DNA of 64,000 nucleotides from an uncultured Acidobacteriota bacterium (lineage in GTDB: Bacteria > Acidobacteriota > Thermoanaerobaculia > Thermoanaerobaculales > Sulfomarinibacteraceae), in contig CAVWAW010000020.1 in NCBI GenBank assembly GCA_963753035.1, positions 14,040 to 78,039 of the forward strand, written 5' to 3'. A program made the position numbers and the translations under genes. The notes under the pieces were generated by a model. It searched no databases. It was not told the origin of the DNA and was given only the letters and a program-made list of their open reading frames with translations. Position 1 is the first letter of the stretch; each line of letters begins with the position of its first letter. Below are positions 23,767 through 41,794 of this stretch, piece after piece.

Positions 23767-25095
23767 TTGATGCATATCTGTGTGGTGGGTACGGGCTATG
23801 TGGGACTGGTCACGGGAGCGTGCCTTGCCGACTTCGGCATCAACGTGACCTGCGTTGACAAGGACGAGCGGAAGATCGACATGCTGCTCCGCGGTGAGAT
23901 GCCGATCTACGAACCTGGCCTCGACGCGTTGGTGGAGAAGAACGCCAAGGCCGGACGTCTGCACTTCACCACCGATCTCGACCCGGCCATCCGAAGCGCA
24001 CTGGCGATCTTCATTGCCGTCGGCACCCCGCCCAAAGAGGACGGTTCGGCGGATCTGTCGTATGTCATCCAGGTTGCCGAATCCATCGCCGACAATCTCG
24101 ACGGATACAAGGTCATCATCACCAAGTCCACGGTTCCCACCGGGACCGGCCAGCTCATCGAGAAGACCATTTCCGAGCGCACCACGAGCAAACACCCGTT
24201 TTCGGTGGTTTCCAACCCCGAGTTCCTTCGGGAGGGCTCGGCCATCGAGGACTTCATGCGCCCCGACCGGGTGGTGATCGGCGCCCGCGATGACCAGGCC
24301 ATCGCCATCATGAAGGACATCTACTCGCCGCTTTTTCTCCGCGACACCCCGTTCGTCATCACAAATGTCGAGTCGTCGGAGCTCATCAAGTACGCGTCCA
24401 ACGCCTTTCTCGCCACCAAGATCACCTTTATCAACGAGGTTGCCGAGCTCTGCGAACTCATCGGCGCCGATGTCCACCACGTCGCCAAGGGGATGGGGCT
24501 CGATAACCGCATCGGCCCGAAGTTCCTCCACCCCGGTCCGGGTTACGGCGGATCGTGCTTCCCCAAGGACACCCAGGCCCTGACCGAAATCGCCCGCGAG
24601 GCCGGCCGACCCTTTGACATCGTCGAATCGGTGGTGGCCGTCAACGAGCGCATGAAGATCCGCGCGGTGGACAAGGTCCGCACCGCCCTCGGCAACAGCC
24701 TCGCCGGCAAGACCGTCGCCTTGCTCGGCCTCTCGTTCAAACCCGAGACCGACGATATGCGGGAGTCCGCGTCGATCCCCATCGCCGACACGCTCGTCAA
24801 CGAGGGCGCCAGGGTACGCGCCTTCGACCCGGTGGCCATGGACAACGCCAAGACCTTTCTCCCGGCATCGGTGGAGTATTGCGAAGACTCCTACGACGCC
24901 GCCTCCGGGGCCGATGCCCTGGTCATCGTCACCGAGTGGAACCAGTTCCGCTCCCTCGATATGGAGCGGATCAAATCAGCTTTGAAAGGCAACGTCATCG
25001 TCGATCTGCGCAACGTCTGCAGCCCCGAACGCATGGCGGAGAACGGGTTCGATTACTACGGTGTAGGCAGGGCGAAAGTGGATCTGCCCGTGTAG
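23767..25095 (+). CDS. ugd: UDP-glucose 6-dehydrogenase
   Basis: ICVVGTGYVGLVTGACLA (NAD fold), NPEFLREGSA, a catalytic Cys context (GGSCFPKD) and FKPETDDMRES. Confidence 0.9.
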   Translation: MMHICVVGTGYVGLVTGACLADFGINVTCVDKDERKIDMLLRGEMPIYEPGLDALVEKNAKAGRLHFTTDLDPAIRSALAIFIAVGTPPKEDGSADLSYVIQVAESIADNLDGYKVIITKSTVPTGTGQLIEKTISERTTSKHPFSVVSNPEFLREGSAIEDFMRPDRVVIGARDDQAIAIMKDIYSPLFLRDTPFVITNVESSELIKYASNAFLATKITFINEVAELCELIGADVHHVAKGMGLDNRIGPKFLHPGPGYGGSCFPKDTQALTEIAREAGRPFDIVESVVAVNERMKIRAVDKVRTALGNSLAGKTVALLGLSFKPETDDMRESASIPIADTLVNEGARVRAFDPVAMDNAKTFLPASVEYCEDSYDAASGADALVIVTEWNQFRSLDMERIKSALKGNVIVDLRNVCSPERMAENGFDYYGVGRAKVDLPV

Positions 25096-25188
25096 TCGCG
25101 TCGAGCTCGGGATCTGAGTACCGCGTCTTTTTCTTCCGATTGAAAACACCCAACCGTCCACGTTGACCCAGACACAGGAGAGACCAAC

Positions 25189-25968
25189 ATGACCTATCGA
25201 ATCACCATGTCGCTGTTGATGGCCGCCTCGCTCGGCATCGTCGGTGCATGTACCGCAGACCACCACGAGGACGAGAACGTCCAGAACCAGAATCAGATCG
25301 AGGCGGCCACCCAGAGCCAGGCAGCCGCCGCGGGCAACACTGCCACCGGCACGGTCGTGGAGACCATCGACGCCGCCAACTACACCTATGTTCGAGTCGA
25401 TACGGGAGACGAGGAGATCTGGGCCGCAGCCACACGATTCGAAGTGGCCGTGGGCGAGGTCGTGGTGGTTCCTCTTGAAATGCCGATGCAGGATTTTCAC
25501 AGTGAGAGCCTGGACCGCACCTTCCCCGTGGTCTATTTCACCTCGCAGATCATGCGTGAGGGCGAAGGCGCCTCTCCCGCCATGCCTCCGGGCCACCCCC
25601 AGGTGACCGGCGCAATGACTTCGTCCCATGACGAATCCAGCCCTGTGGAGCCTGTCGAGCCGGCCGATGGTGGAGTCACGGTCGCCCGCGTCTGGACCGA
25701 CACCGCAAAACTCGACGGGTCCGAGATTGCCGTGCGTGGACGCGTGGTCAAATACAACGGCGGCATTCTGGGCACGAACTGGATCCATCTCCAGGACGGC
25801 ACCGGTTCGGCTGCCGAAGGATCTCACGATCTCACCGTCACCACCCTCGGCACCGCAGCGGTGGGTGATGTCGTGACCGCCACCGGCACCCTGGTCACCA
25901 ACCAGGACTTCGGCGCAGGCTACACCTACGCCGTCCTGCTCAAGGACGCCGTCTTGGTCACCGACTAG
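25189..25968 (+). CDS. Lipoprotein of unknown function with two OB-like modules and a His/acid-rich N-terminus
   Basis: Lipobox LGIVGAC followed by TADHHEDEN. One module is GTVVETIDAANYTYVRVDTGDEEIWAAA. The second is an OB-like module, ...AVRGRVVKYNGGILGTNWIHLQDG...VTATGTLV. Confidence 0.5.
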   Translation: MTYRITMSLLMAASLGIVGACTADHHEDENVQNQNQIEAATQSQAAAAGNTATGTVVETIDAANYTYVRVDTGDEEIWAAATRFEVAVGEVVVVPLEMPMQDFHSESLDRTFPVVYFTSQIMREGEGASPAMPPGHPQVTGAMTSSHDESSPVEPVEPADGGVTVARVWTDTAKLDGSEIAVRGRVVKYNGGILGTNWIHLQDGTGSAAEGSHDLTVTTLGTAAVGDVVTATGTLVTNQDFGAGYTYAVLLKDAVLVTD

Positions 25969-26161
25969 GAGCCTGCACCGCATAAAATCGGCGGCGCCTT
26001 TCGGGCGGCATTTGGCCCGCTTTTCCTCTGGAAGTGGGCGCAATCCTCGACCGTCGGAGACGGATGTGTGCGAGGATACGGCGCTGATCGGCCATCGGCC
26101 GATCAGCCGAATTATCTTGCGATTCGACCGACAGGGTGCTACTAATTGATGTGTTCTCAAC

Positions 26162-26569
26162 ATGAATGTCGTCAACTCTTGGACACTGCCGGTCGCGCTC
26201 GCGTTGATGTTGATCGTCAGCGTCCACGGAGTTGAATACGTAGCGGCCGCTCAGATGCAGCCCAGCTCAGGCTGCAACGATTGCGACTGCACAAAAGAAT
26301 GCGGCTGCCGCGGCCCCGTCAAAAGTTGCGGTTGCGGCTCCAAAGGTCTTTCTGTCAAGGCACGTTGTCAGTGCGGGTGCTCAGAACAGATCCACATCAA
26401 CGTGGCGTCTTCATCAAAGAGCACACTCGTTCCGACCTCCCCCGTGGTCGGACCCTATCTGACGTGGTCCTTTACTCCAGAGTTCGGCACCCCACTTTCG
26501 TGGCGGTTGGCCTTCGAGCACGATCACCCGCCAAAAATCCTCTCCGAACAGGTCTCCCAGACAATCTAG
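26162..26569 (+). CDS. Small signal-anchored CxC-rich (metallothionein-like) protein
   Basis: 135 aa with an N-terminal hydrophobic segment, then 10 Cys in 37 residues: CNDCDCTKECGCRGPVKSCGCGSKGLSVKARCQCGC. Local GC is visibly lower than in neighbours and there is no obvious SD. Coding status is unproven. Confidence 0.45.
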   Translation: MNVVNSWTLPVALALMLIVSVHGVEYVAAAQMQPSSGCNDCDCTKECGCRGPVKSCGCGSKGLSVKARCQCGCSEQIHINVASSSKSTLVPTSPVVGPYLTWSFTPEFGTPLSWRLAFEHDHPPKILSEQVSQTI

Positions 26570-26797
26570 CTTCGGACATCGCCAACCGCTGGCATTTGCG
26601 GTTTTCGCGGTGTTGCGGACTCGCGGTCGTTGCCGACGGCCGACGCGAGGCTGAAAGAGCTCGAATCGCGTCGTCTTTCCAACGAACTCCGCGTTCCGAC
26701 ACCGTTTCGAACCCCGCAAGGGCTCATCGTTCACCGACCGAAGAACGATAGGCCGAGCCGATTAGCGGTGATGGCAGCCATTTCGGGAGGAGTTCAA

Positions 26798-29191
26798 ATG
26801 AAGTGCGTTGAATCCGTAGTCGGAGCACGACGTCTTGTCGTGATCTCCGTGCTTGCGATCGTGTGTTCATTGTCGCCCATTTCAATCAATCTCTCCGCGG
26901 AAGAAACAACGGCGTCGGGATCCGTCACCGGCCGAGTTCTCAGTATCGACGGAGGGTCAACCGACGGCATCGCGGGGATCAACCTCAAGCTGGACGGAGG
27001 AGGAGAACAGCCGCTGCGAACCGTCAGTCAGGGCGAGGGCCGGTTCTCATTCACGGATCTGAATCCCGGATCCTACACTCTCTCAATCGAAAGCCCCGGT
27101 TTCGACGCCCAGTCGACAACCCTCGATCTCCCGGCCGGTGGTGAAATCACCCACGACATCACCCTGTCCGCCGAATTCAGGGAGTCCATCACCATCACCG
27201 CCACCCGTACCGCGAGAGCCATCAACGAGGTCCCCGCCGCGGTCTCGGTCATCGGCAGGGATGTCATCGAAAAAACACCCATGACCAACATCAAGGAGGC
27301 CATCGTCGGGACCCCGGGAGTCCTCATCGAATCCAAGAGCCAGGGCTATGACGCCCGCCTCATCATCCGCGGCGCGGGTCTCAAGGCGCGTTACGCCATC
27401 CGCGAGGTCATGGTCCTGCTCAACGGGATCCCGATCACCGACCCCGACAGCCTCACCCGGCTCGATTTCGTCGACACCCACCTTGTCGACAGGATCGAGG
27501 TGGTTCGAGGTCCGAACTCCACCCTGTGGGGAATCAACTCCACTGGGGGAGCTATCAACGTGGTCACCAAGAGCCCCTTTGACGGCCATGGTGGCAGCGC
27601 CAGATTGGACCTGGGCACCTACGGCGCCCGCAACGCCCAGCTGGGCTACACCGCTGACATCGGCGACAAGACGTTCTTCAACGTCAACTTCAGCCGACGC
27701 CAGTCCACCAACGACTGGCGCGAGTGGAACGAGTTCGACACCACCCAGTTCACCGTCCAGCCGTCGTGGATCCTCGGCAAAGGTTGGGTGTGGGAGAACT
27801 TCATCAGCTACACCGATGCCAACCTCCAGCTTCCGGGCCGGCTCGTCGTCAATGACACGTACCACGTCGATCAGTGGACACCGTATATGGAAACCGGCTA
27901 TGTGGAACGCACGGCCGAACCGTGGAAGCACAGCTCGAGAAACTCGGAGATCCTTTTCTTCGGTTCGAAGCTCGTCAAGCGCTTTGGCGATGTTCAGTTC
28001 ATGCCGATTCTCTACCTCAACAAATGGAGCCACTTCCACCCAGTGACGGCGCGGATCAACGATGCCGACACCCTGGTCGGCGGCATCGATCTCCAGGCGG
28101 ACTGGGACCACGGCTTCGGGGTGCTCACCGGCGGCGTCACCGCCCGCATCGACAACCAGGATTCCCAGGCCTACACCTACGCCGATGTTCTTCAGACCCC
28201 CAGCGGCCGAATTCTCTCGACCTTGTCGGACGAACCCGGCGAGCTCATGCAGGATCTCGAACGAGGAACATCCCTCTATGGCATCTACGCCCAGGAGTCC
28301 ATGCACTTCGGATCCCGCTGGTTGCTGGATGTGGGCGCCCGCATCGACCGCATCACCTTTGACGTCAAGGGTTACGAGTGGCTCGACTACAATTGGAGCA
28401 GCGGCAGCTATGTCGATGGTGAAGGCCCCATCGACACGGTCGAGACCTACACCGCCTTCAGTCCCAGAATCGGCGCCGTCTTCAACGCGAGTGACGCCGT
28501 CCACCTCTACGGCAACATCTCCGCCGGCGCGCAGACACCCACCTCCGACGAACTCACTCTCAACCCGGATCTCAAGCTCACAACGGTGCAGAACTATGAG
28601 ATCGGCATCAAATCGAGCTGGAGGAACTTCGCGTTTGAAACATCGGTCTACTACAGCCCGGTGTTTGACGAGGTCGTCCAGGTGATCCAACCCTTCGGCG
28701 AGACCGAGTACGTCAATGCCGGCGAGACCGAGAAGAAGGGTGTCGAGGTCGCGCTCACCTGGATGCCTGCAACCGGCCTCTCGGTCGGCGGCAGCTACAC
28801 CTACTCGGATTACACCTACAAGGAGTTCTCCGAACCGGCCTTCGGCACCAACATCGACCGCAGCGGAAACCACCTTCCCTACATTCCAGAGAGCTACTAC
28901 TCGCTCTTTGCGGCCTATGTCGACCCGACCGGGGTGTATCTACGGGCCACCGCCAACACCTGGGGCGAATACTGGATGGACAACGCCAACACCGAGAAAT
29001 ACGAGGGATATGAATTCGTGACCGACCTGACGGTCGGCTGGCAGAACCACCGCTTCGAAGTCGCCTTGATCATTCAGAACTTCTTCGACCAACGGTACGC
29101 GGTGGAGGCGCAGAAGGACCTTTACGGAGCTCTCCGCTACTCCCCGGCAGCCCCGAGATTCATCCTCGGACGTTTCGCGGTCAAGTTCTGA
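26798..29191 (+). CDS. TonB-dependent receptor with N-terminal carboxypeptidase-regulatory-like domain
   Basis: ATG 26798 follows gggagga and precedes a signal peptide. There is a CarboxypepD_reg-like segment (GSVTGRVLS...GRFSFTDLNPGSYTL), a plug domain (VSVIGRDVIEKTP...IEVVRGPNSTLWG) and a long barrel ending ...LGRFAVKF. Confidence 0.85.
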   Translation: MKCVESVVGARRLVVISVLAIVCSLSPISINLSAEETTASGSVTGRVLSIDGGSTDGIAGINLKLDGGGEQPLRTVSQGEGRFSFTDLNPGSYTLSIESPGFDAQSTTLDLPAGGEITHDITLSAEFRESITITATRTARAINEVPAAVSVIGRDVIEKTPMTNIKEAIVGTPGVLIESKSQGYDARLIIRGAGLKARYAIREVMVLLNGIPITDPDSLTRLDFVDTHLVDRIEVVRGPNSTLWGINSTGGAINVVTKSPFDGHGGSARLDLGTYGARNAQLGYTADIGDKTFFNVNFSRRQSTNDWREWNEFDTTQFTVQPSWILGKGWVWENFISYTDANLQLPGRLVVNDTYHVDQWTPYMETGYVERTAEPWKHSSRNSEILFFGSKLVKRFGDVQFMPILYLNKWSHFHPVTARINDADTLVGGIDLQADWDHGFGVLTGGVTARIDNQDSQAYTYADVLQTPSGRILSTLSDEPGELMQDLERGTSLYGIYAQESMHFGSRWLLDVGARIDRITFDVKGYEWLDYNWSSGSYVDGEGPIDTVETYTAFSPRIGAVFNASDAVHLYGNISAGAQTPTSDELTLNPDLKLTTVQNYEIGIKSSWRNFAFETSVYYSPVFDEVVQVIQPFGETEYVNAGETEKKGVEVALTWMPATGLSVGGSYTYSDYTYKEFSEPAFGTNIDRSGNHLPYIPESYYSLFAAYVDPTGVYLRATANTWGEYWMDNANTEKYEGYEFVTDLTVGWQNHRFEVALIIQNFFDQRYAVEAQKDLYGALRYSPAAPRFILGRFAVKF

Positions 29192-29209
29192 TCAAAATGG
29201 AGTGAACCG

Positions 29210-29695
29210 ATGAAAAAGTTACTGGTTTTCATTTTCGCCGCCACCCTCTCGGTCGGAGCCGCGTGGTACCGGCACGGGGACTCCGCCCACGCCATGGGGA
29301 TGGTCTCCATCAAGGGAGGACGAGCCCTTCATCCCGTCCACCTGCCTATCGGAAAGGAGCGCTACACCCTGGTGATCACCGGCACCGTCATCCCACCATA
29401 CCGAGGCGATACAAAAGTGACGGTCGATGGTGGCGAACCGATCCCGTTCATCGTCCGCGGTTCAGACCCCATCATCGATCTCGCCCTGCGCCACCGCCCG
29501 TACTTCGAGGACGGGACCCTGACCGGGCTTCAACCGCGAGACCGATTCACCATCTGGGTGGTCATGGACCCGGACGAGCCCATGCCCGCCGGCAAACGCG
29601 ATGTCACGTTCACCGACACAGCCACGAACAAACCGGTGCTCAGGATCCCCGTGATCTTCGGAGGAGGCGGGGAGGGTCAACACCATGACCACTGA
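29210..29695 (+). CDS. Secreted hypothetical protein with C-terminal His-rich tail
   Basis: Signal peptide MKKLLVFIFAATLSVGAA, a beta-rich body and the tail GGGGEGQHHDH. It overlaps the next gene by 11 nt. Confidence 0.5.
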   Translation: MKKLLVFIFAATLSVGAAWYRHGDSAHAMGMVSIKGGRALHPVHLPIGKERYTLVITGTVIPPYRGDTKVTVDGGEPIPFIVRGSDPIIDLALRHRPYFEDGTLTGLQPRDRFTIWVVMDPDEPMPAGKRDVTFTDTATNKPVLRIPVIFGGGGEGQHHDH

Positions 29696-30527
29696 AACCT
29701 ACGGCGCGACGGCCGTTTCGTTCTGGTCCAAACACCGAACCCTGATCCTCATCTCCGGCATCGTGCTCTTCCTGCCACCGCTGGCGGCCATCGTCCAGCT
29801 GACCGGAGATACGAACTTCTGCGGCCGATGGTGTCCACGGATGTTCTTCGCGTGGCGGGAGGGCCAGTCCATGAGCGCATTTCTCATGGGCTTTGTCCGC
29901 GCCTACATGGGTGTCGCCCTGGTGGCGGCAATCCTCGTCACCACGCTGGCTTTCGGCCGCTACTGGTGCAGCCATCTGTGCCCGGTGGCCTCACCCCTCG
30001 AACTCGGGAGCCGGCTGATTCCGAACAAATTCAAGCTCAATTTTTCAGCAACCCCGGCGCCGTCGTTTCGGTACGGTTATCTGCTCATCTATCTCATCGC
30101 CCCGGCCATCGGGATCGGTTCTCTGTGTTGCAACTACTGCAATTTCGCTGCGGTGCCAAGGCTCTTCGCCGCACCGTTCTCCGAGGGTGATCTCATCTAC
30201 TTCCTGAGATTCCAGGGGGTCGTCAACTTCGGTCTCCTGCTCTTCCTCGGGATCTTCGCCAAGGGCGGCCGCGCATACTGCAACCTGCTCTGTCCGGTGG
30301 GAGCGCTGGATGCGCTCTCGAACAAGATCGGGGCACGATTCGGGCGCCGAATCCGCATCGACCATGATGCGTGCACCAACTGCGGCGACTGCTCGGTGGT
30401 CTGCCCGACCTGGGCCATCGATGTCACCGATCTCACCACCATCAACCAGCTTTCCTGCATGCCGTGCCGGCAGTGCCAGGATGTCTGCCAACACGGAGCG
30501 ATTTATTATGGCAAGCCGGCGGCTTAG
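29685..30527 (+). CDS. NapH/MauN/YccM-type membrane polyferredoxin
   Basis: Multi-pass membrane protein with three CX3CP motifs (CGRWCP, CSHLCP, CNLLCP) and two C-terminal 4Fe-4S motifs (CTNCGDCSVVCP, CMPCRQCQDVC). Confidence 0.75.
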   Translation: MTTETYGATAVSFWSKHRTLILISGIVLFLPPLAAIVQLTGDTNFCGRWCPRMFFAWREGQSMSAFLMGFVRAYMGVALVAAILVTTLAFGRYWCSHLCPVASPLELGSRLIPNKFKLNFSATPAPSFRYGYLLIYLIAPAIGIGSLCCNYCNFAAVPRLFAAPFSEGDLIYFLRFQGVVNFGLLLFLGIFAKGGRAYCNLLCPVGALDALSNKIGARFGRRIRIDHDACTNCGDCSVVCPTWAIDVTDLTTINQLSCMPCRQCQDVCQHGAIYYGKPAA

Positions 30528-30753
30528 TCTCGTTGCCGGCGTCATGGGCGTTTCGGCGGGGCTCGCGCCCTATCTGCCGACCGTCATCTGTCCGGGGGGG
30601 GCCTGCACCTCGTGCTTCGCATGTGTCGGCGCCGGCGGCGCCGCGGCGTCAGCGCTGGTTGTCGGACTCATCTCACGGAAGTTCGGTAAGCCCTCCTCGA
30701 GCAAAGACGAACCGGTGACCGCCAACATCAAAGGAGGATCTTCCGAAGGCTGA
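30508..30753 (+). CDS. 81-aa Tat-signal-like miniprotein with CX4CX2CX2C motif and C-terminal hydrophobic segment
   Basis: MASRRLSLVAGVMGVSAGLAP (SRRxSL), then VICPGGACTSCFACVGAGGAAASALVVGLI and a polar tail. ggag lies 9 nt upstream of the ATG. It overlaps the preceding gene by 20 nt. Confidence 0.4.
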   Translation: MASRRLSLVAGVMGVSAGLAPYLPTVICPGGACTSCFACVGAGGAAASALVVGLISRKFGKPSSSKDEPVTANIKGGSSEG

Positions 30754-30793
30754 CCCAATCTGAACACCGCTCGCGCGCGACCTCAGCGACGCG

Positions 30794-32950
30794 TCAGTAG
30801 GTCCACCCGGGGTGGTTCTTGCCGTGGCAGCGCAGAGTGCATTTGCCGTTGTGGGTTCCGGTGGACAAGTACTCCAGCGTCCCGTTGAAGGGAAAAACCA
30901 CCGAGGTGTCAAAGTTGATCAGCTTCGGATTGGCCGAGGCGTGTGGATCATGGCAGACATTGCAGGGGGTATCTTCCTCTCGAATGTGTTTGTCATGATC
31001 ATCGAAACTCGTCCCGTTGCTGATGCTGGTCCACGAGTGACATTTGAAACACAGAGCGAAATTCGCCGTGTTGAAATTCGTGCCGTCCACGGTGACATAG
31101 CGTCGTTCCAGCAGATGGGGCCAATCCGAGCCATGCGGGCCGTTGGCGCCCGAGCCTCCCGCCACCGGACCGTCGTCGTTGTTGTGACAGGTGGTGCAGC
31201 TCATGAGGCTGTTCTCGTCCCAGCCGTTGTTAATGATGAGTGACGGCACGGACGCGTTCGTTCCCTGCACCGCAACCGGGTGGTAGGACGCCATGGAACC
31301 GTCGAATTCCACCCGAACATTTGTTTCCGGGAACTGCCGCGGTGTCGGCGCTGAGGGCAGATTGGGGCTGTCGGCGTGACAACGGAAGCAGAGCTCGTAC
31401 TCATAGGATGCGGGATTCACCGCATTGCCCGCCAAGTTGACGCCCTGAACGCCCTCGAGCGGACCTGATGCGGGTCTCGGCGCTGTCGCCGCGCCGGGAA
31501 GGTTGATCCGACCCACCGCTTCGTGTGGGCCGTGGCAGTCTTCGCACTCGACATGGCGTGTCGTCACGACGGCGGACTCGCCCGGTTGGTGGACCTCCGA
31601 CGCCAACGACAATGGGTGGGCCGATGATTTCTGAAAATCGGCCCGCACATTTGCCGTCGCCGGACTGCCGTCGTGGCAGGTGAAGCAGAGGTTTTCTTCC
31701 AGATCCACCTGGAGCCGAGGATAGTCGCGATCGGTGTCGGCGTTATCGGGCCAGCCGTGCGCCTGGTGGCAGCCCGCGCAGGTCGCGGTCTGGGTCGAAT
31801 CGGTGATGGCCGGAAAGGTCGATCCGTATTGCCCACCGGGCCACAGCGCCCCTGTTGAACCGGAGTCGAAATGTGCCGCCGGAGTCGCGGTGTCGGCCAG
31901 GGTGTGGCACTCGATGCACAGCCCCACTCGATCGGCGCTCCGCAGCAACGAACCATCGTCCACCGGCGAATCATGGAGCTGATGGCAGGTCATGCAAGCG
32001 ATTCGATCGTTCGGATCGAGGGGCAGGGTCGTGGGCGGCTGGGTGCCCCCGGATGCGGGCACGGTGACGTCAACCGGGTGCGACCCGTCGCGAGCGAACT
32101 GGACGACACGGAGGCCGTGGCAGTCGTTGCACATGGCGCCCTCGTCGTTGTCGATGCGCATGAAGTGGCGGCCTTCGCCAGTTCCCGGCCCACCGTAAGG
32201 GGGCGCCGACGCATCGAAGGGTTCCTTGACCTGCTTGTGCTCGTTGTGGCAGGTCGAGCACATGGCCCGGCCGTCCTCGAGCCTGCCCGACATCTCCGGG
32301 GCGGCCGGTGGGAGGATCTCCGTCCTGACATAGATCCTCCAGACGTCGCCGGCCACGAAGGACGGCGGCGCATCGGCGTCGAAGAAACTCACGGTCACAC
32401 CTTCGTCGAGGGGAACATCGGCACCCGTGGTGAGCCCGGTCCCGCCTCCACCGAGGGTGTCGTTCCAGGAAAAAGCCGCGGTTCCGACATCTCCGGTTGA
32501 GGTCACCGTCAGGGTGTAGGTCTTGGGGAACTTGCCGTTGAACGCTCCACCGGGAACGACCTCACCCACCGAGGTGTTGCCGGCGTCCGATTTGATGTGG
32601 CCCGCCGCTCCCGCATCCCACCGGTGCGAGTTGCCCGACGGGGTCGTCCCCGACGGTAATCCTGGGCCGGGCAGTGCCTGGTCGGCGTCGATAAATGGAA
32701 AACCGCCCGCAAAGCCGCCGGCGACGTGGCAGCTCAGACACAGATTGCCGTTGCCGCCCACAGTGGTGAGGCTTCCACCGGCCGAGTTGTGCGTCGTGTG
32801 GCAACTCGAACAATCGATGTTCACCGAAGCATCATGCGCCGGGTCCAACGCCCGGGCGGCAGGAGCGACCAGAAGCAGGATCATCAGGAGAACCGGCCGC
32901 CCACCCTGGAGCCGTCGCCGCAGACTACGGGAACGTTTCAGACCAGGCAT
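30794..32950 (-). CDS. Secreted multiheme c-type cytochrome, 13 CXXCH + 1 CX3CH
   Basis: 718 aa with a signal peptide ending APAARA. Motifs in order: CSSCH, CLSCH, CSTCH, CNDCH, CMTCH, CIECH, CAGCH, CFTCH, CEDCH, CFRCH, CTTCH, CFKCH, CNVCH, then CTLRCH at the C-terminus. A 155-aa heme-free insert lies between hemes 2 and 3. Confidence 0.9.
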   Translation of the reverse strand: MPGLKRSRSLRRRLQGGRPVLLMILLLVAPAARALDPAHDASVNIDCSSCHTTHNSAGGSLTTVGGNGNLCLSCHVAGGFAGGFPFIDADQALPGPGLPSGTTPSGNSHRWDAGAAGHIKSDAGNTSVGEVVPGGAFNGKFPKTYTLTVTSTGDVGTAAFSWNDTLGGGGTGLTTGADVPLDEGVTVSFFDADAPPSFVAGDVWRIYVRTEILPPAAPEMSGRLEDGRAMCSTCHNEHKQVKEPFDASAPPYGGPGTGEGRHFMRIDNDEGAMCNDCHGLRVVQFARDGSHPVDVTVPASGGTQPPTTLPLDPNDRIACMTCHQLHDSPVDDGSLLRSADRVGLCIECHTLADTATPAAHFDSGSTGALWPGGQYGSTFPAITDSTQTATCAGCHQAHGWPDNADTDRDYPRLQVDLEENLCFTCHDGSPATANVRADFQKSSAHPLSLASEVHQPGESAVVTTRHVECEDCHGPHEAVGRINLPGAATAPRPASGPLEGVQGVNLAGNAVNPASYEYELCFRCHADSPNLPSAPTPRQFPETNVRVEFDGSMASYHPVAVQGTNASVPSLIINNGWDENSLMSCTTCHNNDDGPVAGGSGANGPHGSDWPHLLERRYVTVDGTNFNTANFALCFKCHSWTSISNGTSFDDHDKHIREEDTPCNVCHDPHASANPKLINFDTSVVFPFNGTLEYLSTGTHNGKCTLRCHGKNHPGWTY

Positions 32951-34175
32951 TCACATCTCCAGACTCGAAACCGTCATCAAAAATCGATCCCGTCGGGGGC
33001 GGGACTGTGAAATCGTCTAAACCGAAGACCTCGAGACGACCGCTGTTCACCGAGGACACGAACAACCGGTTGTGACCGTCGATGACCAGCCCGAACGGCG
33101 TCCGGAACTGCCCCGGGTGGTCTCCGATGCTGCCGATCACAGCCAACTCCGCGCCGGCTCCATCAAAGACCTTGACGTGGCTCTGGAAGGCGTCGGCGAC
33201 ATAGATTCTGCCGATCCCGTCTCCCCTCAGCCCTTGGATCCGGCCGAAGTTTCGGTCCCCGCCACCCTGAGCCCCGAAACAACGGAGGAAGGCGCCCTGC
33301 CGGTCAAAGACCTGAACCCGATCATTGTTCTGGTCACCGACAAAAACTTCGCCGTAGGGACTCACCCAGACGGCGGATGGAAAATCGAACTCTCCCGGGC
33401 CGCTTCCGCTCCCGCCGAATGATCGAAGCGGCAGACCATCCGGGTCGTAGACCTTGATCAGGTCCGCCTTGCCGTCGGCGACAAAGACCTCGCCGAAACC
33501 GGGGTCCGGATCGATGGCAATGTCGGTCGCACCCTGGAACTCACCGGCGCCGGCGCCGAGCGTGCCGCTGTGGTTCCACTGCTCGTCATAGATGTCCACC
33601 CGGCCGGTTGCATCGTCACTCACGTAGGTGTTTCCAAAATCGTCGACAGCGAGGGCGAGGGGTACACCCATTGCGCTGCGAACTTCGATGACCCGGCCGT
33701 GAACATCCATGATCACGATCGATCCCCGAGTCGGATCGGTGACGTAGACATTGTCACCGGAGTCGACGGCCAACCGCGCCGGCGCCCGCAGACTCTCCAG
33801 CTGAGAGCCCAGGACCTCGACCTCGGGAGGCGGCAGCACCGGTGTTCCATCCCAGGTGCACAGCTGTGCGGATGTCGTTCCCGGCAGGCCGAGAAAGACC
33901 ATGCCGGCAACAAAGACCACCGTCACACGCGCGATCCTGTAGGACCGCGCGGCGCCGGACCGACCTGCGCTCGCACCCCTCGGGTCGTCATCCACCACTG
34001 ATGGACGTCTCACTCCGGCTTCCTTTCTCGCAATGGCATCGTGCAAATAACCAAGAATCGTTCCGAATAATGATTGTCGCGAAAACGGCCATCCTCTTTC
34101 AGTGCCGTAGATCACCGACCCACTCGGACCCGCGAGGGTCACCGCATCCACATGAGTGGAATCGCCAAGCCTCAC
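32925..34175 (-). CDS. NHL-repeat beta-propeller protein (N-terminal TM anchor)
   Basis: Six NHL-like blades (NVYVTDPTRGSIVIMD, NTYVSDDATGRVDIYD, EVFVADGKADLIKVYD, EVFVGDQNNDRVQVFD, RIYVADAFQSHVKVFD, RLFVSSVNSGRLEVF). The start overlaps the upstream stop by 4 nt. Confidence 0.8.
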   Translation of the reverse strand: MRLGDSTHVDAVTLAGPSGSVIYGTERGWPFSRQSLFGTILGYLHDAIARKEAGVRRPSVVDDDPRGASAGRSGAARSYRIARVTVVFVAGMVFLGLPGTTSAQLCTWDGTPVLPPPEVEVLGSQLESLRAPARLAVDSGDNVYVTDPTRGSIVIMDVHGRVIEVRSAMGVPLALAVDDFGNTYVSDDATGRVDIYDEQWNHSGTLGAGAGEFQGATDIAIDPDPGFGEVFVADGKADLIKVYDPDGLPLRSFGGSGSGPGEFDFPSAVWVSPYGEVFVGDQNNDRVQVFDRQGAFLRCFGAQGGGDRNFGRIQGLRGDGIGRIYVADAFQSHVKVFDGAGAELAVIGSIGDHPGQFRTPFGLVIDGHNRLFVSSVNSGRLEVFGLDDFTVPPPTGSIFDDGFESGDVNAWSETFP

Positions 34176-35302
34176 TGGCGCCTGCTGTCCGGTCTGTCTT
34201 CCGGTCGCGGCGCCGCCTGGAAGCCCGTAGGATGCCTGCCAAGGCCGCTATCGCGCGCGGGATCGGCAAACCTCGGGTGACCCTTGCTGGTGAACATGGG
34301 TCCATAGCCGAGGGGGTCGTGATCGACTCCGTGGCAGGTGAGATAGCAACCCCCCATCCCCGCGGCCTCGGAAGTGTATTCGAGCCGCCCCGAACTCGAG
34401 GCCAGCACACCGGTGATCGCGGTGGGCTCATTGAAGCGGATGAGGGCCCGCCCAGCGGTCGCTCCGTGCGAATCGTGGCACAGAACGCACGCGGTTCGTT
34501 GGTCCACGACGTGCAGGCGGTGATACGGAAAGGGGTCGGAATCGAGGACGATCTTTCGATCGTGGCACTGATAGCACAGAGCGTAGGAGCTCTCCGATTC
34601 CGGCTGCCCATCCTGCAATGAGTAGTCCGCGCCGAGCAAACCCGGCACTCGACTCCCGTGCGGTCCGCGCGCACCTCGAACATCATCGTTGGTGTGGCAG
34701 TCCGAACAGTTGATCAGGGAATCCGACGTCAAAGGAGGCAAAAGGCTCGGGACCTCCCCGACACCGATGGCGAGCACCGGATGGAACGACGGATTCCTCG
34801 AATCGAAGAGCAGACCGATGTCATGAGGATCCGAGACCATGGCGGACCGGGTCCCATGACACGAAAGGCAGAGGTTCGCCTCGCTCGTGAAACCCCGTTT
34901 CGGCGAAGGTTTCTGCCGCCCGAGATCGAGGCCGGTTCCGTCCAAGCCCTGGAGCCGGCCGATACCATGAACGCTGTGGCAGTCGACACAACTCGCCCCG
35001 CGGTGGATCACCGGTTTGACCATTTCCACACGGATGTCCGCAGGATCGGCGCCGGAGTCCATTCCGAGTGCTTCCCGCCGGCCGGGCTCGGCCGCACCCG
35101 TCTGGTGGCATTCGATGCACATGGTGTCTCTGTCGGTCTTCAACATGGGGGTTCGGGAGGCCCCGTGACCCTGATGGCAAGGCGTACAGTCTTCGGCGAG
35201 CATCCCCGGCTCGAAGTGCTTGCCGAGATCAACGGCCGAAGCCACCGGGGCGATCAGGACAATCGCCACCGCGGCAGTTCTCAGGAATGACAGGCGATGC
35301 AT
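34172..35302 (-). CDS. Secreted multiheme c-type cytochrome, 7 CXXCH + 1 CX3CH
   Basis: Start taken at MHRLSFLRTAAVAIVLIAPVASA within ORF 34172-35374. Motifs: CTPCH, CIECH, CVDCH, CLSCH, CSDCH, CYQCH, CVLCH, then CYLTCH. The C-terminal half is paralogous to the end of the 718-aa cytochrome. Confidence 0.9.
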   Translation of the reverse strand: MHRLSFLRTAAVAIVLIAPVASAVDLGKHFEPGMLAEDCTPCHQGHGASRTPMLKTDRDTMCIECHQTGAAEPGRREALGMDSGADPADIRVEMVKPVIHRGASCVDCHSVHGIGRLQGLDGTGLDLGRQKPSPKRGFTSEANLCLSCHGTRSAMVSDPHDIGLLFDSRNPSFHPVLAIGVGEVPSLLPPLTSDSLINCSDCHTNDDVRGARGPHGSRVPGLLGADYSLQDGQPESESSYALCYQCHDRKIVLDSDPFPYHRLHVVDQRTACVLCHDSHGATAGRALIRFNEPTAITGVLASSSGRLEYTSEAAGMGGCYLTCHGVDHDPLGYGPMFTSKGHPRFADPARDSGLGRHPTGFQAAPRPEDRPDSRRQ

Positions 35303-35934
35303 AGCTCCCCCGGTTTTGCGGTGAGAAGGAAATCTCCGTACGGATCGCGGTGGGGATCGTGGCAGGTTGTGCACTGGATGCGATTCTCTTTATCGAGCTT
35401 CGCGAGGGGGTGATTCCGCATCTCCGACAACGATCTCAAGGGGACATCGCCCTTGGAGTTATTGGTTGTGACCAGGTGGTCCGTCACCATGAAGGAGACC
35501 GGGTGATCACCGCTCAGGTCACGGCCGAGATTCGATTCCGACGTCGATGGCATGGTGGTGATACCACCACGCATCTCGATCCGACCCGACGACACCGTCG
35601 ATCCGAGCGCGATGGTTCCGTCGTGGCAGGATAGGCAGAGTTTCGAGGAACCATTGGGCTGCGGCGCTTCCCCCGAGGAACTGTAGGCATCCATGGTCTC
35701 GCTCCAGTACATCTGGTAGCTGCCCCCCGGATTCTCCCGATTCCACAACGGCGCCTGGAAGACGGCGTTGTGGGTGGTGTGGCAGAAGACACACACCCTG
35801 GTCTCGGACACCGCTCTGACGGTACCGGGACCGGTCACTGAAAGATTGTGGGAGGTGTCGCGCACGCTTTCCTGGGACGAGGCCAGAACAGCCAGACCCA
35901 ACACCATCGTCAGGGTGATCGCTGCGCGTCTCAT
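35281..35934 (-). CDS. Secreted tetraheme c-type cytochrome (paralog 2)
   Basis: 217 aa with signal peptide ...LAVLASS. Motifs: CVFCHTTHN, CLSCHDG, CTTCHDPH, CIACHS*. It is collinear with the 39770-40381 product and has an ATGA overlap with the upstream NHL gene. Confidence 0.9.
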   Translation of the reverse strand: MRRAAITLTMVLGLAVLASSQESVRDTSHNLSVTGPGTVRAVSETRVCVFCHTTHNAVFQAPLWNRENPGGSYQMYWSETMDAYSSSGEAPQPNGSSKLCLSCHDGTIALGSTVSSGRIEMRGGITTMPSTSESNLGRDLSGDHPVSFMVTDHLVTTNNSKGDVPLRSLSEMRNHPLAKLDKENRIQCTTCHDPHRDPYGDFLLTAKPGELCIACHS

Positions 35935-36938
35935 TTCAGGTTTTCCCTTCGCTGGTAACGCATGAGTTGGACTCGTCGATTCCCGGTATCCGCAACGGCC
36001 ATATGACCGCGGCGATCGATGGCGAGGCCTCCGGGGGTCCAGAATTCCCCGGCCCCGAAACCACGACCTCCGATGATCAGGAGAAGCTGTCCATCCTGGT
36101 CAAAGACCTGAACCGCATCAAAGCGTGCGTCGGACACATAGAGGTGGCCGTCGGGATCGATCGCCAGCCCCTTGGCCAGGGCAAAATGACCAGACCCATC
36201 CCCGTGCTGGCCGAACTGAGAGAGATAATGAAGTTTGGCGTCGAGTTGCTGGATTCGGAAATTGAAGGGGTCGAGGACCCAGACAGTCCCGTCCGGCGCT
36301 TCGGCGACGGCGGTCGGAGTGTTGAACTCGCCATCGCCGGTTCCACGCCTACCTGACCTGGCCACTTCGAGTCCTCCCGTGCTGACACGAACCACCTGAC
36401 CGGTCTCGGCGTCGGTGATCAAAACGTCGCCATTCGCACACACGGCGAGCCCACCACAACGCTGCACAAAGCCTTGACTCACGACCTCGCCGAGCAGCAC
36501 GCCTTTGTGGTCGAAAGCGATGACCGCTCCGAGTTCCCGATCGGCAACCAGGATCTGATCCCCATCCGGGGTCGCGGCGATTGCGACCGGTTGCATGCCT
36601 TCAGGCAGCTTCAACCTGATCGCGGCGCTTCCATCGGTCTTGCCGCCGATCACCCAGTTCATGGCCGTGTCCACCACGAAGACCCGGTCTTTGGCGAGGG
36701 CCACGGCAACGGGCCGCGGCAGAGGCAACGTCTGCTGACGCCGCTCGGCGCCGGCCACTGCACGGAAGATCCGTCCCAGCCCCTTGGGGCGGAACTCATC
36801 GACGGTGGCCTGCCAGGCAACCTCGGCCGGAGCCTCTGCCGAAGGCGGCGGCCAGACCGGGCCTTCAGCACACATCCCCGGTGACGGCAGGCAACCCGCT
36901 CCGAGAAACACCACGAGTGCGATTCGTCGCACCCTCAT
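35931..36938 (-). CDS. NHL-repeat beta-propeller protein, lipobox-like signal (paralog of 40725-41774)
   Basis: N-terminus is MRVRRIALVVFLGAGC. NHL blades include QILVADRELGAVIAFD, VWVLDPFNFRIQQLD, HLYVSDARFDAVQVFD and HMAVADTGNRRVQLM. It has an ATGA overlap with the upstream barrel gene. Confidence 0.8.
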   Translation of the reverse strand: MRVRRIALVVFLGAGCLPSPGMCAEGPVWPPPSAEAPAEVAWQATVDEFRPKGLGRIFRAVAGAERRQQTLPLPRPVAVALAKDRVFVVDTAMNWVIGGKTDGSAAIRLKLPEGMQPVAIAATPDGDQILVADRELGAVIAFDHKGVLLGEVVSQGFVQRCGGLAVCANGDVLITDAETGQVVRVSTGGLEVARSGRRGTGDGEFNTPTAVAEAPDGTVWVLDPFNFRIQQLDAKLHYLSQFGQHGDGSGHFALAKGLAIDPDGHLYVSDARFDAVQVFDQDGQLLLIIGGRGFGAGEFWTPGGLAIDRRGHMAVADTGNRRVQLMRYQRRENLK

Positions 36939-38695
36939 CTTCGATGATCTCCGGCTCTGAATTGGAACAATCGCCTCACACCGACCCAGATCCTTCGGAA
37001 CCGGCGCTGTTCGAGTCCCGCCTCCTCGGTCCGCTGCTCTCGGACCCGAGCATAGAACGAGAGCTTGGCATAGTTGAATCGAAGTCCGAGCTCGGCGAAT
37101 TCATAGGTTCCGATATGATCGAAGATCCTGCGTTCCTCGGAGCGTACAAAACCGTCGAAGAGCAACCAATACGTCGGCCCCCAGCTGATGTTCGCCTGCC
37201 ACACATCGGTCAGAGTCGGGACTTCGCTTCCGACCATCTCAAACCGGTCGGCGGAGGCTCCGATGGTCACCCGTCCGAGCGCGATGTTGAGCTGGGCACG
37301 GGCGACATCCTCCTCGATCTCGAATCCCCGGTCCACCCGTACCCGGTTGCGATAGTCCAAGTCGAGCGACAACGCGGTTCGTTGGCTGGGTCGATACTCG
37401 AATATCACCCGTCCGCGGTAGCGCCGCCGGTCTAAACCGGCGAGAAACGCGCTCCCGATGGGAGGTTCGCCGATGCTGTAGTCCGGTATCGAGAGTTGGT
37501 TGTCAAAGTACTCGACGTCGAGAGTCACGCTCGAGCGAGGAAGCTGGTAGCGAACCGACCCGAAGATCAGGGAGCCGAAGGCCGATTCCTGTTCGAGCTC
37601 CTCCGGATCGGCCCTGAGATAGGTCACCCGGGGGTAGAGCGACACCCACCAACGGCCGTACTGCTTGCCCCATCTCAGTCCGAGGCCCGCCCGCGGCTGG
37701 GTCAGCCGTAAACCGTCACCGTATTCGTTGCTGAGGTAGCCGAGTTCGGCCTCGAGAAAGGTCGAGGGACTCAGCGGAGCGACGAGGTTGGCCGAGAGGT
37801 TACCGGTAATGATCTCTTCAACCGGGTCGGTCTCGACGCGGACCACGCGCATATCCGCCCTCAGGTCCCAGAAACCGAGTTGACTGTATCGGTGGCGCAA
37901 CTGGTTTCTGAACAGGTAGTTTGTCGTCCACGGCGAGAAATCACCGTGATTCTGGGCGGAGCGGTAGACATTTCCGATCAGGTCGGTGTGCCAGTAGACC
38001 TTTCCGGTCCGGTTGACGTCGAGGTCGAACCGTCCCGAACCGATCTCCTGCTGAAGACCACCTCCAAAGAGGTCGTTCTCCTTCCAAAGAAGCTGCAGCA
38101 TGGCATCGACTTTGCCGACGGCCGCCTGGGTGGACAGCTCGCTCCAGGCGGTGTCTTCATCACGCAGGGTGTCCGGCTGGTCCGCGTTGAAGCTCTGCTC
38201 CCAATGCCGAAGATTGAGACGGAACCACTGGCCGCCGAGAGCTCTCAGGCCATACCGCTGATAGTCTCGCACGCCATCGACGATCGCTCCCTGCTGGAGA
38301 CCCGTGACATCGGTACCCTGGCGACCCGCACCGACTTCGAGCGAGATCGCGCGGTTGTTGAAGAACCGGAGCGACCCGTCGTAATAGGTGTCGTCGACGT
38401 CGTTGTCCTGGGCGCCGGAAATCGTCTGATTCGACAGGGTTTTTGCAACACTGGCATCAAAGGTCATGAATCTCGGATCGACGAGGTGCCCGGCGACGGC
38501 CGCCCAGAGAACGGTCTGGAGATTCGATCTCTCGGCGGAAATGCCTCCGTATTCCTGTGAATCGCTCAGGTATTCCGCCGAGAGGCCAAGCGTGAAGGTC
38601 GCCCCGCTCGAGGCCCATGCGGACCCGGCGCAGCACCAAAGACAGATCACTGCGCAGATCCGGCGAGCGACGGGGTTCAGAATCTTTCGGCGCAC
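36935..38695 (-). CDS. Predicted outer-membrane beta-barrel protein
   Basis: 586 aa with a signal peptide ending SAWA and no Cys-heme motif. It has a long series of short alternating hydrophobic/polar strands rich in Y/R/G/D (FTLGLSAEYLS, LRFFNNRAISLEVGAG, RFDLDVNR, VSLYPRVTYLR, LSLDLDYRNRV, LGLRFNYAKLSFYARV) and a near-terminal ...IWVGVRRLFQF. Confidence 0.55.
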   Translation of the reverse strand: MRRKILNPVARRICAVICLWCCAGSAWASSGATFTLGLSAEYLSDSQEYGGISAERSNLQTVLWAAVAGHLVDPRFMTFDASVAKTLSNQTISGAQDNDVDDTYYDGSLRFFNNRAISLEVGAGRQGTDVTGLQQGAIVDGVRDYQRYGLRALGGQWFRLNLRHWEQSFNADQPDTLRDEDTAWSELSTQAAVGKVDAMLQLLWKENDLFGGGLQQEIGSGRFDLDVNRTGKVYWHTDLIGNVYRSAQNHGDFSPWTTNYLFRNQLRHRYSQLGFWDLRADMRVVRVETDPVEEIITGNLSANLVAPLSPSTFLEAELGYLSNEYGDGLRLTQPRAGLGLRWGKQYGRWWVSLYPRVTYLRADPEELEQESAFGSLIFGSVRYQLPRSSVTLDVEYFDNQLSIPDYSIGEPPIGSAFLAGLDRRRYRGRVIFEYRPSQRTALSLDLDYRNRVRVDRGFEIEEDVARAQLNIALGRVTIGASADRFEMVGSEVPTLTDVWQANISWGPTYWLLFDGFVRSEERRIFDHIGTYEFAELGLRFNYAKLSFYARVREQRTEEAGLEQRRFRRIWVGVRRLFQFRAGDHRR

Positions 38696-39759: not shown

Positions 39760-39769
39760 CAGGAGCGGA

Positions 39770-40381: not shown

Positions 40382-40502
40382 GATTTTTGCCCTCCGTTCT
40401 CGAATCCAAAGAAACTCGATTCGAACCTTGCTGCCGGCGTGGGCCCTTCGCGTCAGATTGCGAACGGCCCGCAGGTTCGGTCGAATCTCATCAACTGACT
40501 GG

Positions 40503-40531
40503 AGCATATTTTGGATCTATTCCTAAATCAA
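40503..40531 (-). promoter_or_regulatory. Sigma70-like promoter candidate for the tetraheme-led operon
   Basis: On the minus strand: TTGATT (40531-40526), a 17-nt spacer, then TATGCT (40508-40503), about 120 nt upstream of the ATG and inside a 343-nt AT-richer gap. Sequence match only. Confidence 0.3.
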
Positions 40532-41774: not shown

Positions 41775-41794
41775 CAGTCAGTTCTCGCTCTCGT

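Follow-up and report, generated by a model that had tools for sequence, protein, structure and literature searches.

The 64,000-nucleotide stretch analysed here (the window; contig CAVWAW010000020.1, positions 14,040 to 78,039 of the forward strand), from an uncultured acidobacterium of the family Sulfomarinibacteraceae, contains a conserved module composed of a Cys-rich leader open reading frame (ORF), a TonB-dependent receptor, an orphan protein of 161 amino acids (aa), a polyferredoxin and a miniprotein with four cysteines. The genes for the last four of these are obligately linked, and it is suggested, as the explanation favoured on balance, that the module is a leader-gated, TonB-dependent uptake system for a thiophilic metal, probably copper, with an Fe-S-dependent reductive step. 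The components of this proposal differ in strength: that the co-conserved operon is real is virtually certain, TonB-dependent import is very likely, and control of expression by the leader is reasonably probable. The cargo and the redox step are what we infer; that the cargo is a metal is likely, a redox step has an even chance, and that the metal is copper has an even chance at best.

Linkage, distribution and coding status of the module

A search with the 161-aa protein gave 79 clusters, and a profile built from 20 aligned sequences identified 27 loci in species-representative genomes (the genome loci), which span Acidobacteriota (Thermoanaerobaculales and others), Desulfobacterota, Nitrospirota, Schekmanbacteria, unclassified bacteria and one member of the Rikenellaceae. 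By tblastn, 26 of the 27 carry the receptor, 161-aa and polyferredoxin genes side by side; in the remaining locus (L033), on the Rikenellaceae contig and the sole Bacteroidota example found, the order is 161-aa protein, polyferredoxin, miniprotein and then a receptor-type gene. The miniprotein gene lies 3' of the polyferredoxin gene in 24 genome loci, the misses being L013, L022 and L031. Given that seeding on one gene can bias such counts, a second, independent seeding was made on the polyferredoxin in metagenome contigs, using the best 80 of 296 relatives (the metagenome loci). Where the contig left at least 520 nt of room, the 161-aa gene was found directly upstream of the polyferredoxin gene in every case (64 of 64), as was the receptor upstream where at least 1500 nt were available (40 of 40), and the miniprotein motif lay downstream in 68 of the 70 loci with at least 260 nt.

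The preliminary description of this DNA had proposed that the genes at 26798-30753 form one operon, which their co-conservation across several phyla bears out, and the pairing that it had drawn between an outer-membrane active transporter and a membrane Fe-S protein of the NapH/NosR/CcoG superfamily is upheld; its ORF positions, spacings, motifs and the distance of 40 nt to the convergent neighbour were all found in the sequence. The receptor and 161-aa genes are separated by 18 nt (29192-29209), the 161-aa and polyferredoxin genes overlap by 11 nt (29685-29695) and the polyferredoxin and miniprotein genes by 20 nt (30508-30527). That TonB and ExbBD genes are missing, as was also stated, holds for the locus in the window and fails for its relatives, where genes for ExbB, ExbD and TonB adjoin the cassette on its downstream side in 12, 12 and 14 of the 27 genome loci respectively (Pfam-confirmed on L019), and where exbB follows in 15 of the 41 metagenome loci with at least 1200 nt of room. 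The genome from which the window comes has nine TonB_C and five ExbD matches outside the locus.

The module is rare, with a patchy, scattered occurrence in anaerobic sediment bacteria. Among 401 sampled genomes of the host phylum, three of them of the same family, the 161-aa profile matched the window's own genome only, and against 1.84 billion representatives at 50% identity it gave only 96 matches at E <= 1e-3, none of which linked it to a known family. The module is best read as self-contained and horizontally scattered. No characterised system with this gene set was found in the literature searched, which did not cover the supplementary operon-partner tables of the Bordetella papers, where polyferredoxin contexts could be listed, and source annotations give the module proteins generic names only.

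The three small genes of the module are real coding genes under purifying selection (dN/dS 0.12-0.61), the ratios against close orthologues being 0.26-0.38 for the leader ORF, 0.19-0.61 for the miniprotein and 0.12-0.20 for the 161-aa protein. Neither these three products nor the lipoprotein encoded upstream have a significant match in Pfam or NCBIfam. A scan for sigma-70 promoters returned 0 sites, with a model that is uninformative for this phylum, and no RNA run was among the 19 sequencing runs containing words of the locus. In four DNA runs, which come from three studies and carry the label sediment or marine sediment metagenome, half or more of the words sampled from 26100-30800 are present, and the run with the largest share may be the sample from which the window derives. 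The features of the locus are collected in Table 1.

Table 1. Features of the module and its flanks, in window coordinates unless another locus is named
Feature	Position	Strand	Basis or remark
His-rich lipoprotein ORF	25189-25968	+	lipobox VGAC, then TADHHEDEN
Cys-rich leader ORF, 135 aa, ten Cys	26162-26569	+	ORF list and sequence reading
Candidate stalling motif of the leader, codons for His-Pro-Pro-Lys	26525-26536	+	invariance of HPP; stalling proposed by analogy
Anti-Shine-Dalgarno-like stretch UCCUCUCCGAA in the last leader codons	26538-26548	+	RNA fold
Leader-receptor spacer, untranslated, 228 nt, with a C-rich, G-poor stretch	26570-26797	+	
Receptor ribosome-binding site and start	26782-26800	+	GGGAGGAG at 26785-26792; ATG at 26798
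TonB-dependent receptor, 797 aa	26798-29191	+	inside the longer ORF 26630-29191
Orphan 161-aa protein, C-terminus GEGQHHDH	29210-29695	+	
Polyferredoxin, 280 aa, four transmembrane segments	29685-30527	+	
4-Cys miniprotein, 81 aa	30508-30753	+	inside the ORF 30310-30753
Convergent cytochrome gene	30794-32950	-	40 nt between its end and the stop codon of the miniprotein gene
YVCGCPMMCCN lipoproteins of related loci	L018 5264-5638; L022 5333-5617; L024 3261-3587; L026 5334-5615		

The probable leader and the proteins of the module

The first gene, initially taken for a structural or accessory miniprotein with CxC motifs, looks like a regulatory element and is probably a leader. Its product has a hydrophobic segment at residues 3-21, followed by Cys in CxC and CxxxC runs, and alignment of seven orthologues indicates that eight Cys and a C-terminal W-x-L-x2-E-x2-H-P-P are invariant; H122-P123-P124 is thus present in 7 of 7, and HPP[RK] recurs in five further metagenome loci. 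Upstream ORFs of this kind, Cys-rich, Pro-ended and with a hydrophobic N-terminus, were found in 14 of the 22 genome loci having upstream sequence, six of them ending in HPP[RK], five in RAPP (L012, L018, L022, L024 and L026) and three in other PP-rich sequences, and a leader was also found in 10 of 19 metagenome loci, although two of these ten look spurious. In Bordetella, CruR, a DUF2946 protein with a CXXC motif and a C-terminal RAPP arrest motif, is described as heading the copper-repressed cruR-bfrG-bp2921 operon ahead of a long spacer (PMC9426467), and CutF is reported to have a signal sequence, a CxxxC motif and a proline-rich end (PMC9973294). The leader of the window has the same architecture: a hydrophobic segment, a Cys motif, a Pro-containing end, the first position in the operon and a long spacer before a TonB-dependent receptor gene. 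By analogy, the ribosome translating this leader would stall at HPPK.

For the RNA of 26520-26815 a fold at -115.3 kcal/mol is predicted (z = -3.0; 0 of 200 shuffles as stable). In both the minimum free energy and the centroid folds, UCCUCUCCGAA pairs with UUCGGGAGGA (26782-26791) through ten base pairs and one bulge, and UUCGGGAGGA includes the Shine-Dalgarno (SD) sequence of the receptor. Given also that CCUC(U/C)CC follows HPP[RK] in 12 of 12 related loci, these observations are suggestive of control of the receptor by anti-SD/SD pairing. A ribosome paused at HPPK would cover the anti-SD stretch and so free the SD sequence of the receptor, and binding of metal by the nascent Cys-rich peptide may alter the pause, as in CruR and CutF. 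The C/G ratio of the spacer, which reaches 1.5-1.7 in 78-nt segments starting at 26650-26670, is compatible with Rho loading at a C-rich, G-poor sequence. Two other accounts of this region were set aside. Riboswitch control was rejected because no Rfam family matched 24500-31500 at E <= 1 and none reached the gathering score in nine loci, and the idea that the CxC protein is a metallothionein, or the precursor of a peptide metallophore, was rejected because a leader accords better with the Pro motif at the C-terminus, with the spacer and with the SD pairing.

The receptor belongs to the TonB-dependent receptors, given that its Plug domain (PF07715; 6.2e-23, 81.8 bits against a cut-off of 23.9) and its barrel (PF00593; 5.9e-38, 132.3 bits against 27) both exceed the Pfam cut-offs; an N-terminal CarboxypepD_reg domain is also present (4.5e-12). 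The mature protein has no Cys, and the residues invariant in 25 orthologues are W410-x-H412-x-H414-P415, H438 and M205. Its nearest solved relatives are YncD and PqqU (E ~2e-33), and its best NCBIfam model is of the siderophore type (TIGR01783, 185 bits against a cut-off of 223.5). A second TonB-dependent receptor gene lies in or beside the cassette in L012 (9927-12221), L014 (1151-3265), L020 (2510-4453) and L024 (7787-9958). Elsewhere in the genome of the window, at G000:C18:17982-19848, a receptor resembling OprC/NosA (TIGR01778) is spread over four pieces in two reading frames (116.6, 114.7, 83 and 52.1 bits), and this gene may be frameshifted or misassembled.

The AlphaFold model of the 161-aa protein (predicted local distance difference test score, pLDDT, 87; predicted template modelling score, pTM, 0.76) consists of an N-terminal helix, predicted to be a signal or an anchor, and an Ig-like or cupredoxin-like beta sandwich. 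D24, S25 and H27 (motif GDSAHAMG), H41, and H159 in the His-rich tail are invariant, and M29 is nearly so. The clusters of its relatives are unnamed, 'hypothetical' or 'YHS domain-containing'; relatives of about 204 aa carry a YHS (PF04945) insert, scoring 44.8 bits in P0078 and 27 bits, under the cut-off of 30.3, in P0064, and the protein of the window, which lacks both Cys and the insert, is not a YHS protein. With the model as query, Foldseek gave a best E of 1.3e-4 at a template modelling (TM) score of 0.27, with cupredoxins at E ~1e-3 (TMq 0.32-0.36), and VIA gave a best Z of 8.2, within its 'common arrangement' range, with the FixG-related 2r39 at Z 7.1 and PmoB at Z 7.0. The ESM Atlas returned unnamed clusters only (best 0.80). 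An alignment of the profile to a second polyferredoxin of the genome (L002) had an hhalign probability of 0.2, and since the L002 protein is not a CcoG this has no bearing on the idea that the 161-aa protein and the polyferredoxin are a split CcoG. Three very long proteins, P0363 (2513 aa), P0381 (1063 aa) and P0400 (2278 aa), contain 8-16 stretches matching the 161-aa profile, which may be repeats of this beta-sandwich domain in surface proteins.

The polyferredoxin belongs to the Fer4_5 superfamily (PF12801; 8.6e-17, 61.3 bits against a cut-off of 22, in two stretches) and is 55-63% identical across phyla. Its architecture is that of NapH and MauN, with four transmembrane segments, CX3CP motifs and two C-terminal [4Fe-4S] motifs; nevertheless, it was rejected as a member of that family, given that its best NCBIfam matches, the NapH models TIGR02163 (62.4 bits against 213.05) and NF007013 (66.9 against 234), are far under their cut-offs, and no nap, mau or nos partner gene was found among 87 flank proteins scanned. 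It was likewise rejected as a CcoG/FixG protein, since Fer4_18 scored 18.5 bits (cut-off 27), no FixG_C match was obtained, the protein ends after the ferredoxin domain and the context is not ccoGHIS. The three CX3CP motifs and two 4Fe-4S motifs that had been read from the sequence are present, and all are invariant in 24 sequences (C46/C50/P51, C95/C99/P100 and C199/C203/P204, and two CxxCxxCxxxC motifs), as is a CCxxC (C148/C149/C152) that had not been listed. Of the loops around the four hydrophobic segments, the N-terminus, loop 2 and C-terminus hold 16 Lys and Arg and loops 1 and 3 hold 4. The first CX3CP and the CCxxC would face the periplasm because the Fe-S domain, in a protein without an export signal, must be cytoplasmic. 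A Foldseek search with the model matched the ferredoxin domain alone (E >= 0.05).

The miniprotein has a basic N-terminus, a hydrophobic segment, the motif C-x4-C-x2-C-x2-C, a further hydrophobic segment and a basic tail, an order which suggests a membrane hairpin with the Cys at its periplasmic turn; its sole invariant residues among 24 aligned sequences are C28, G30, C33, C36 and C39, and the ESM Atlas holds unnamed clusters only (best 0.96). The Tat label first given to it has to be dropped, since no aligned sequence outside the acidobacterial branch has the twin arginine (these start with MKK, MEK and similar), and the second hydrophobic segment and basic tail follow the Cys motif. The predicted complex of polyferredoxin and miniprotein scored 0.48 (runs 0.40-0.51) and the best of three controls 0.00; at least 83% of contacts are shared between the runs, and the pLDDT of the partner is 64 or higher. 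In the benchmark, 116 of 157 solved complexes attained the mark for this score, as did 2 of 215 mismatched pairs; at scores of 0.60 or lower only 18 of the 157 did so, together with both passing mismatches. These counts hold only roughly here, given that self-built alignments were used. The prediction lends weak support to binding between the two proteins.

Cargo, redox step and alternative explanations

It is suggested that the receptor, with its WxHxHP motif and further His and without Cys, would bring a metal or a metal chelate into the periplasm, where the membrane-anchored beta-sandwich protein would take over the metal with His, Met and Asp ligands, to which the relatives would add a Cys3 YHS insert. 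The metal would then move to a Cys-lined site at the periplasmic face of the inner membrane, formed by the first CX3CP and the CCxxC of the polyferredoxin and the four Cys of the miniprotein, and the cytoplasmic [4Fe-4S] domain of the polyferredoxin would give electrons, for example for the reduction of Cu(II) to Cu(I) or for keeping the thiols reduced. In this role the polyferredoxin, which resembles the cupric reductase CcoG, would stand in for CrpH, the haem-b PepSY_TM reductase of Bordetella. A further step, considered here to be speculative and rather unlikely, is that polyferredoxin and miniprotein together are a new haem-free Fe-S/thiol importer of copper in the inner membrane, leader-gated and fed by the beta-sandwich protein, which would reduce Cu(II) at a nine-Cys periplasmic site and pass on Cu(I); if true, this would supply the step across the inner membrane that is missing from the picture of copper acquisition in anaerobes.

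The evidence for a metal, and for copper in particular, comes from the 161-aa protein and its relatives, from the surroundings of the cassette and from the parallel with known systems. The 161-aa protein offers a hint of metal in its invariant His and Asp, its nearly invariant Met and its His-rich tail. NosL (52 bits) is encoded upstream in L017, L019 and L021, a multicopper-oxidase-like gene is divergent in L026, and in four Desulfobacterota-type loci lipoproteins rich in Cys and Met (YVCGCPMMCCN...C-x-CN), which belong to no Pfam family, are encoded between a RAPP leader and the receptor. YHS domains are described as proposed metal binders in Cu-ATPases, one of them being a probable copper sensor (PMC4626032). 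In Bordetella, CrtA is reported to import chelated copper, with a PepSY_TM gene in more than 75% of crtA loci (PMC12914433), a TonB-dependent receptor and a membrane reductase together are described as importing chelated copper for haem-copper oxidases (PMC12914433, PMC13038864), and crpH and ccoG have a synthetic phenotype (PMC13038864); CcoG itself is described as having two [4Fe-4S] clusters and two copper sites and as reducing Cu(II), not Fe(III) (PMC7558416). Genes of the COX1 family occur in 19 of 28 cassette genomes and five of the nine genomes without them have Cu-oxidase_2 matches, although this co-occurrence says little in either direction, cuproenzymes being common and the metagenome-assembled genomes (MAGs) incomplete. 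Reductive processing of an imported metal, one of two hypotheses in the preliminary description, thus stays the best reading, given the YHS inserts, the NosL neighbours, the leaders of CruR/CutF type and the cruR-crtA-crpH parallel.

Several findings count against leader-gated copper uptake and have to be set beside this evidence. At the level of families, no part of the module qualified as a member of any copper family tested. The OprC/NosA model TIGR01778 (cut-off 472 bits) gave no match to the receptor at E <= 0.001 in a whole-genome search, and an OprC/NosA-type copper receptor was rejected on this ground and because a protein with no Cys has no CxxxM-HxM copper site; CrtA (BfrG; PDB 9RVQ) was matched by phmmer at E 9.1e-17 with the best stretch at residues 129-289, in the plug only, and membership of that subfamily was rejected also, the nearest solved relatives being YncD and PqqU. 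DUF2946 (PF11162) had no match at E <= 1 on the leader of the window, nor any in a six-frame search of the genome, so that homology to this family is not established, and its sole touch was on the leader of L026 (12.5 bits, E 0.66). The leader itself is absent from 8 of the 22 genome loci with upstream sequence and from 9 of the 19 metagenome loci, the anti-SD duplex surpasses 95% of its shuffled versions at only half of the loci (6 of 12), and one of its paired positions becomes A/A in L013. The fold predicted for the 161-aa protein gives generic beta-sandwich matches only, 2r39 being tied with many others, and the first CX3CP and CCxxC of the polyferredoxin are placed in the periplasm from hydropathy, in stretches where the model has a pLDDT below 50. 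In nine of the 28 cassette genomes, which are incomplete MAGs, no COX1 gene was found, and in four of these nine no Cu-oxidase_2 gene either. Finally, a Cys-rich leader is no proof of copper because relatives of DUF2946 also head Co, Zn and Cd systems such as CzcI, according to PMC9973294, and His-rich tails fit Ni or Zn as well.

These last points raise the possibility that the same architecture and logic serve a transition metal other than copper (Ni, Co, Zn, Cd-like or Fe). The His-rich tail and the His-based invariant residues of the receptor and the 161-aa protein would suit such a cargo, as would hosts that are anaerobes with a high demand for Ni and Co, the DUF2946-type leaders of Czc systems (PMC9973294), the nine genomes without COX1 and a receptor that is closest to siderophore-type models. 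However, this is rather unlikely for several reasons: first, neither a cobalamin or NiCo riboswitch nor one of any other kind was detected in 24500-31500 of the window or in the nine loci; second, Ni, Co and Zn need no redox step; third, Fe(II) is abundant in anoxic habitats; and fourth, the NosL, YHS, multicopper-oxidase and Cys/Met-rich neighbours point to Cu(I) chemistry.

It is improbable that the cargo is instead a redox-active compound other than a metal, such as a quinone- or PQQ-like cofactor, a corrinoid, or sulfur or polysulfide, which the polyferredoxin and the 4-Cys protein would reduce after import. In favour of such a cargo, the NapH/NosR relatives of the polyferredoxin serve electron transfer rather than metal handling. 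The similarity of the receptor to YncD and to the PQQ transporter PqqU would fit such a cargo, as would a cassette with no inner-membrane transporter of a known family; nevertheless, the PqqU model scores 139.5 bits on the receptor against a cut-off of 1200, the YHS inserts, NosL neighbours and Cys-rich Pro-ended leaders are linked to metals, and no riboswitch was found in 24500-31500 of the window or in the nine loci.

A module that senses or detoxifies a metal, by periplasmic sequestration or by reduction for export and without import, is very improbable. TonB-dependent receptors with dedicated ExbB-ExbD-TonB genes are import machines, and the cassette has no conserved gene for an efflux pump, a P-type ATPase or a multicopper oxidase. 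What speaks for this alternative is that leaders of the CutF type are reported to switch on detoxification genes (PMC9973294) and that overproduction of CcoG is reported to promote copper tolerance (PMC7558416).

Least credible of all is the other hypothesis in the preliminary description, that the multihaem cytochrome/NHL locus, convergent and 40 nt distant, receives metal or electrons from the module, given that this locus accompanies the cassette, beyond the window in which the two adjoin, in only three of the 27 genome loci (L008, L011 and L013), where the arrangement is the same and all three are close relatives (67-97% protein identity), that other lineages have two-component systems, a second receptor, PntAB and others as neighbours, and that the convergent orientation means that the two are not co-transcribed. 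The locus itself, at 30794-43546 on the minus strand, alternates multihaem c-type cytochromes (paired CXXCH, weak MtrC/DmsE-like matches) with NHL or six-bladed propeller proteins and looks like an extracellular or periplasmic electron-transfer locus.

The His-rich lipoprotein, counted at first as a member of the unit, also lies outside it, because it belongs to a large independent family and a terminator-like hairpin with a T-run (26002-26019) stands between its gene and the leader ORF. It is beside the cassette only in the window and in the same three of the 27 genome loci (L008, L011 and L013), and at least 2456 clusters of its family were counted among 8000 scored candidates, whereas the 161-aa protein has 79. 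The lipoprotein has two OB/TOBE-like halves (TOBE 18.6 bits, under the cut-off), and its gene follows that of a UDP-glucose dehydrogenase in four genomes. The family is unnamed, and the label 'UPF0212' that one source gives to members is an apparent mislabel.

Comparison with known systems

Bacterial copper acquisition is poorly understood and, to our knowledge, the sole TonB-dependent, leader-controlled copper system that has been studied is CruR-CrtA-CrpH of Bordetella, characterised in 2022-2026 and from aerobes. The sulfide of anaerobic sediments makes copper and other thiophilic metals extremely scarce. If leader-gated uptake of such a metal is correct, the module would be the same logic rebuilt from other parts in anaerobes, with an Fe-S polyferredoxin where Bordetella has a haem reductase, with two orphan families (a metal-handling beta sandwich and a membrane hairpin with four Cys) and with a stalling leader outside DUF2946. 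It would offer candidates for the inner-membrane step of metal entry, for a second class of partners of bacterial cupric reduction and for a new branch of metal-sensing arrest peptides.

The closest parallel is with cruR-crtA-crpH of Bordetella pertussis, in which, as described in PMC9426467, PMC12914433 and PMC13038864, a Cys-containing leader with a Pro-containing arrest motif is followed by a long spacer, a TonB-dependent receptor and an inner-membrane redox protein. ExbBD-TonB genes stand beside some members of both families, and the Bordetella system is tied to the copper supply of respiratory oxidases, with crpH reported to overlap functionally with the polyferredoxin gene ccoG. By analogy, the module would work like cruR-crtA-crpH while lying outside those families: the leader ends in HPPK instead of RAPP and has no DUF2946 match, the receptor is outside the CrtA family (9e-17, plug only), and the four-transmembrane Fe-S polyferredoxin takes the place of CrpH, a di-haem PepSY_TM protein. 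Furthermore, the module has two extra obligate genes, for the 161-aa beta sandwich and the 4-Cys hairpin, that have no counterpart in Bordetella, and its hosts are anaerobic sediment bacteria.

CutF of Rhodobacter capsulatus offers a second parallel for the leader, being described as an exported leader with a Cys motif and a proline-rich end at which stalling controls the SD sequence of the next gene through RNA structure (PMC9973294), as is proposed by analogy here. The two nevertheless have no detectable sequence homology, and CutF switches on a detoxifying multicopper oxidase in response to copper, whereas the genes downstream of the leader in the module are those of an uptake system. The transporters of ionic copper OprC and NosA share with the receptor an outer-membrane, TonB-dependent build and a copper-flavoured context (PMC7558416); they differ in their TIGR01778 family and CxxxM-HxM site, in place of which the receptor has invariant residues that are His-based.

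For the inner-membrane components, CcoG/FixG/RdxA is similar in being a Fer4_5 membrane polyferredoxin with CX3CP motifs, two [4Fe-4S] clusters and a proposed role in reducing Cu(II) to Cu(I) (PMC7558416), and it carries a periplasmic Ig-like domain of unknown function, while the module encodes a separate Ig-like protein just upstream of the polyferredoxin. The polyferredoxin of the window differs from it in having no FixG_C, a Fer4_18 score under the cut-off (18.5 bits against 27) and no ccoGHIS context, and in an extra invariant CX3CP and CCxxC that are predicted to face the periplasm; moreover, the 161-aa protein is no closer to 2r39 (Z 7.1) than to unrelated beta sandwiches. NapH, MauN and NosR have in common with it the four transmembrane helices, the CX3CP motifs and a C-terminal ferredoxin domain with two clusters, and are set apart by its third CX3CP and CCxxC, its obligate link to a TonB-dependent receptor and the lack of nap, mau or nos partners. 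Proteins of the MerF/MerT type are very small membrane proteins with Cys in or between transmembrane helices and are thought to pass a thiophilic metal across the inner membrane. The miniprotein has a similar small, Cys-bearing membrane build, but it had no sequence match to them in the searches made, its pattern, C-x4-C-x2-C-x2-C, is different, and it is always paired with a polyferredoxin.

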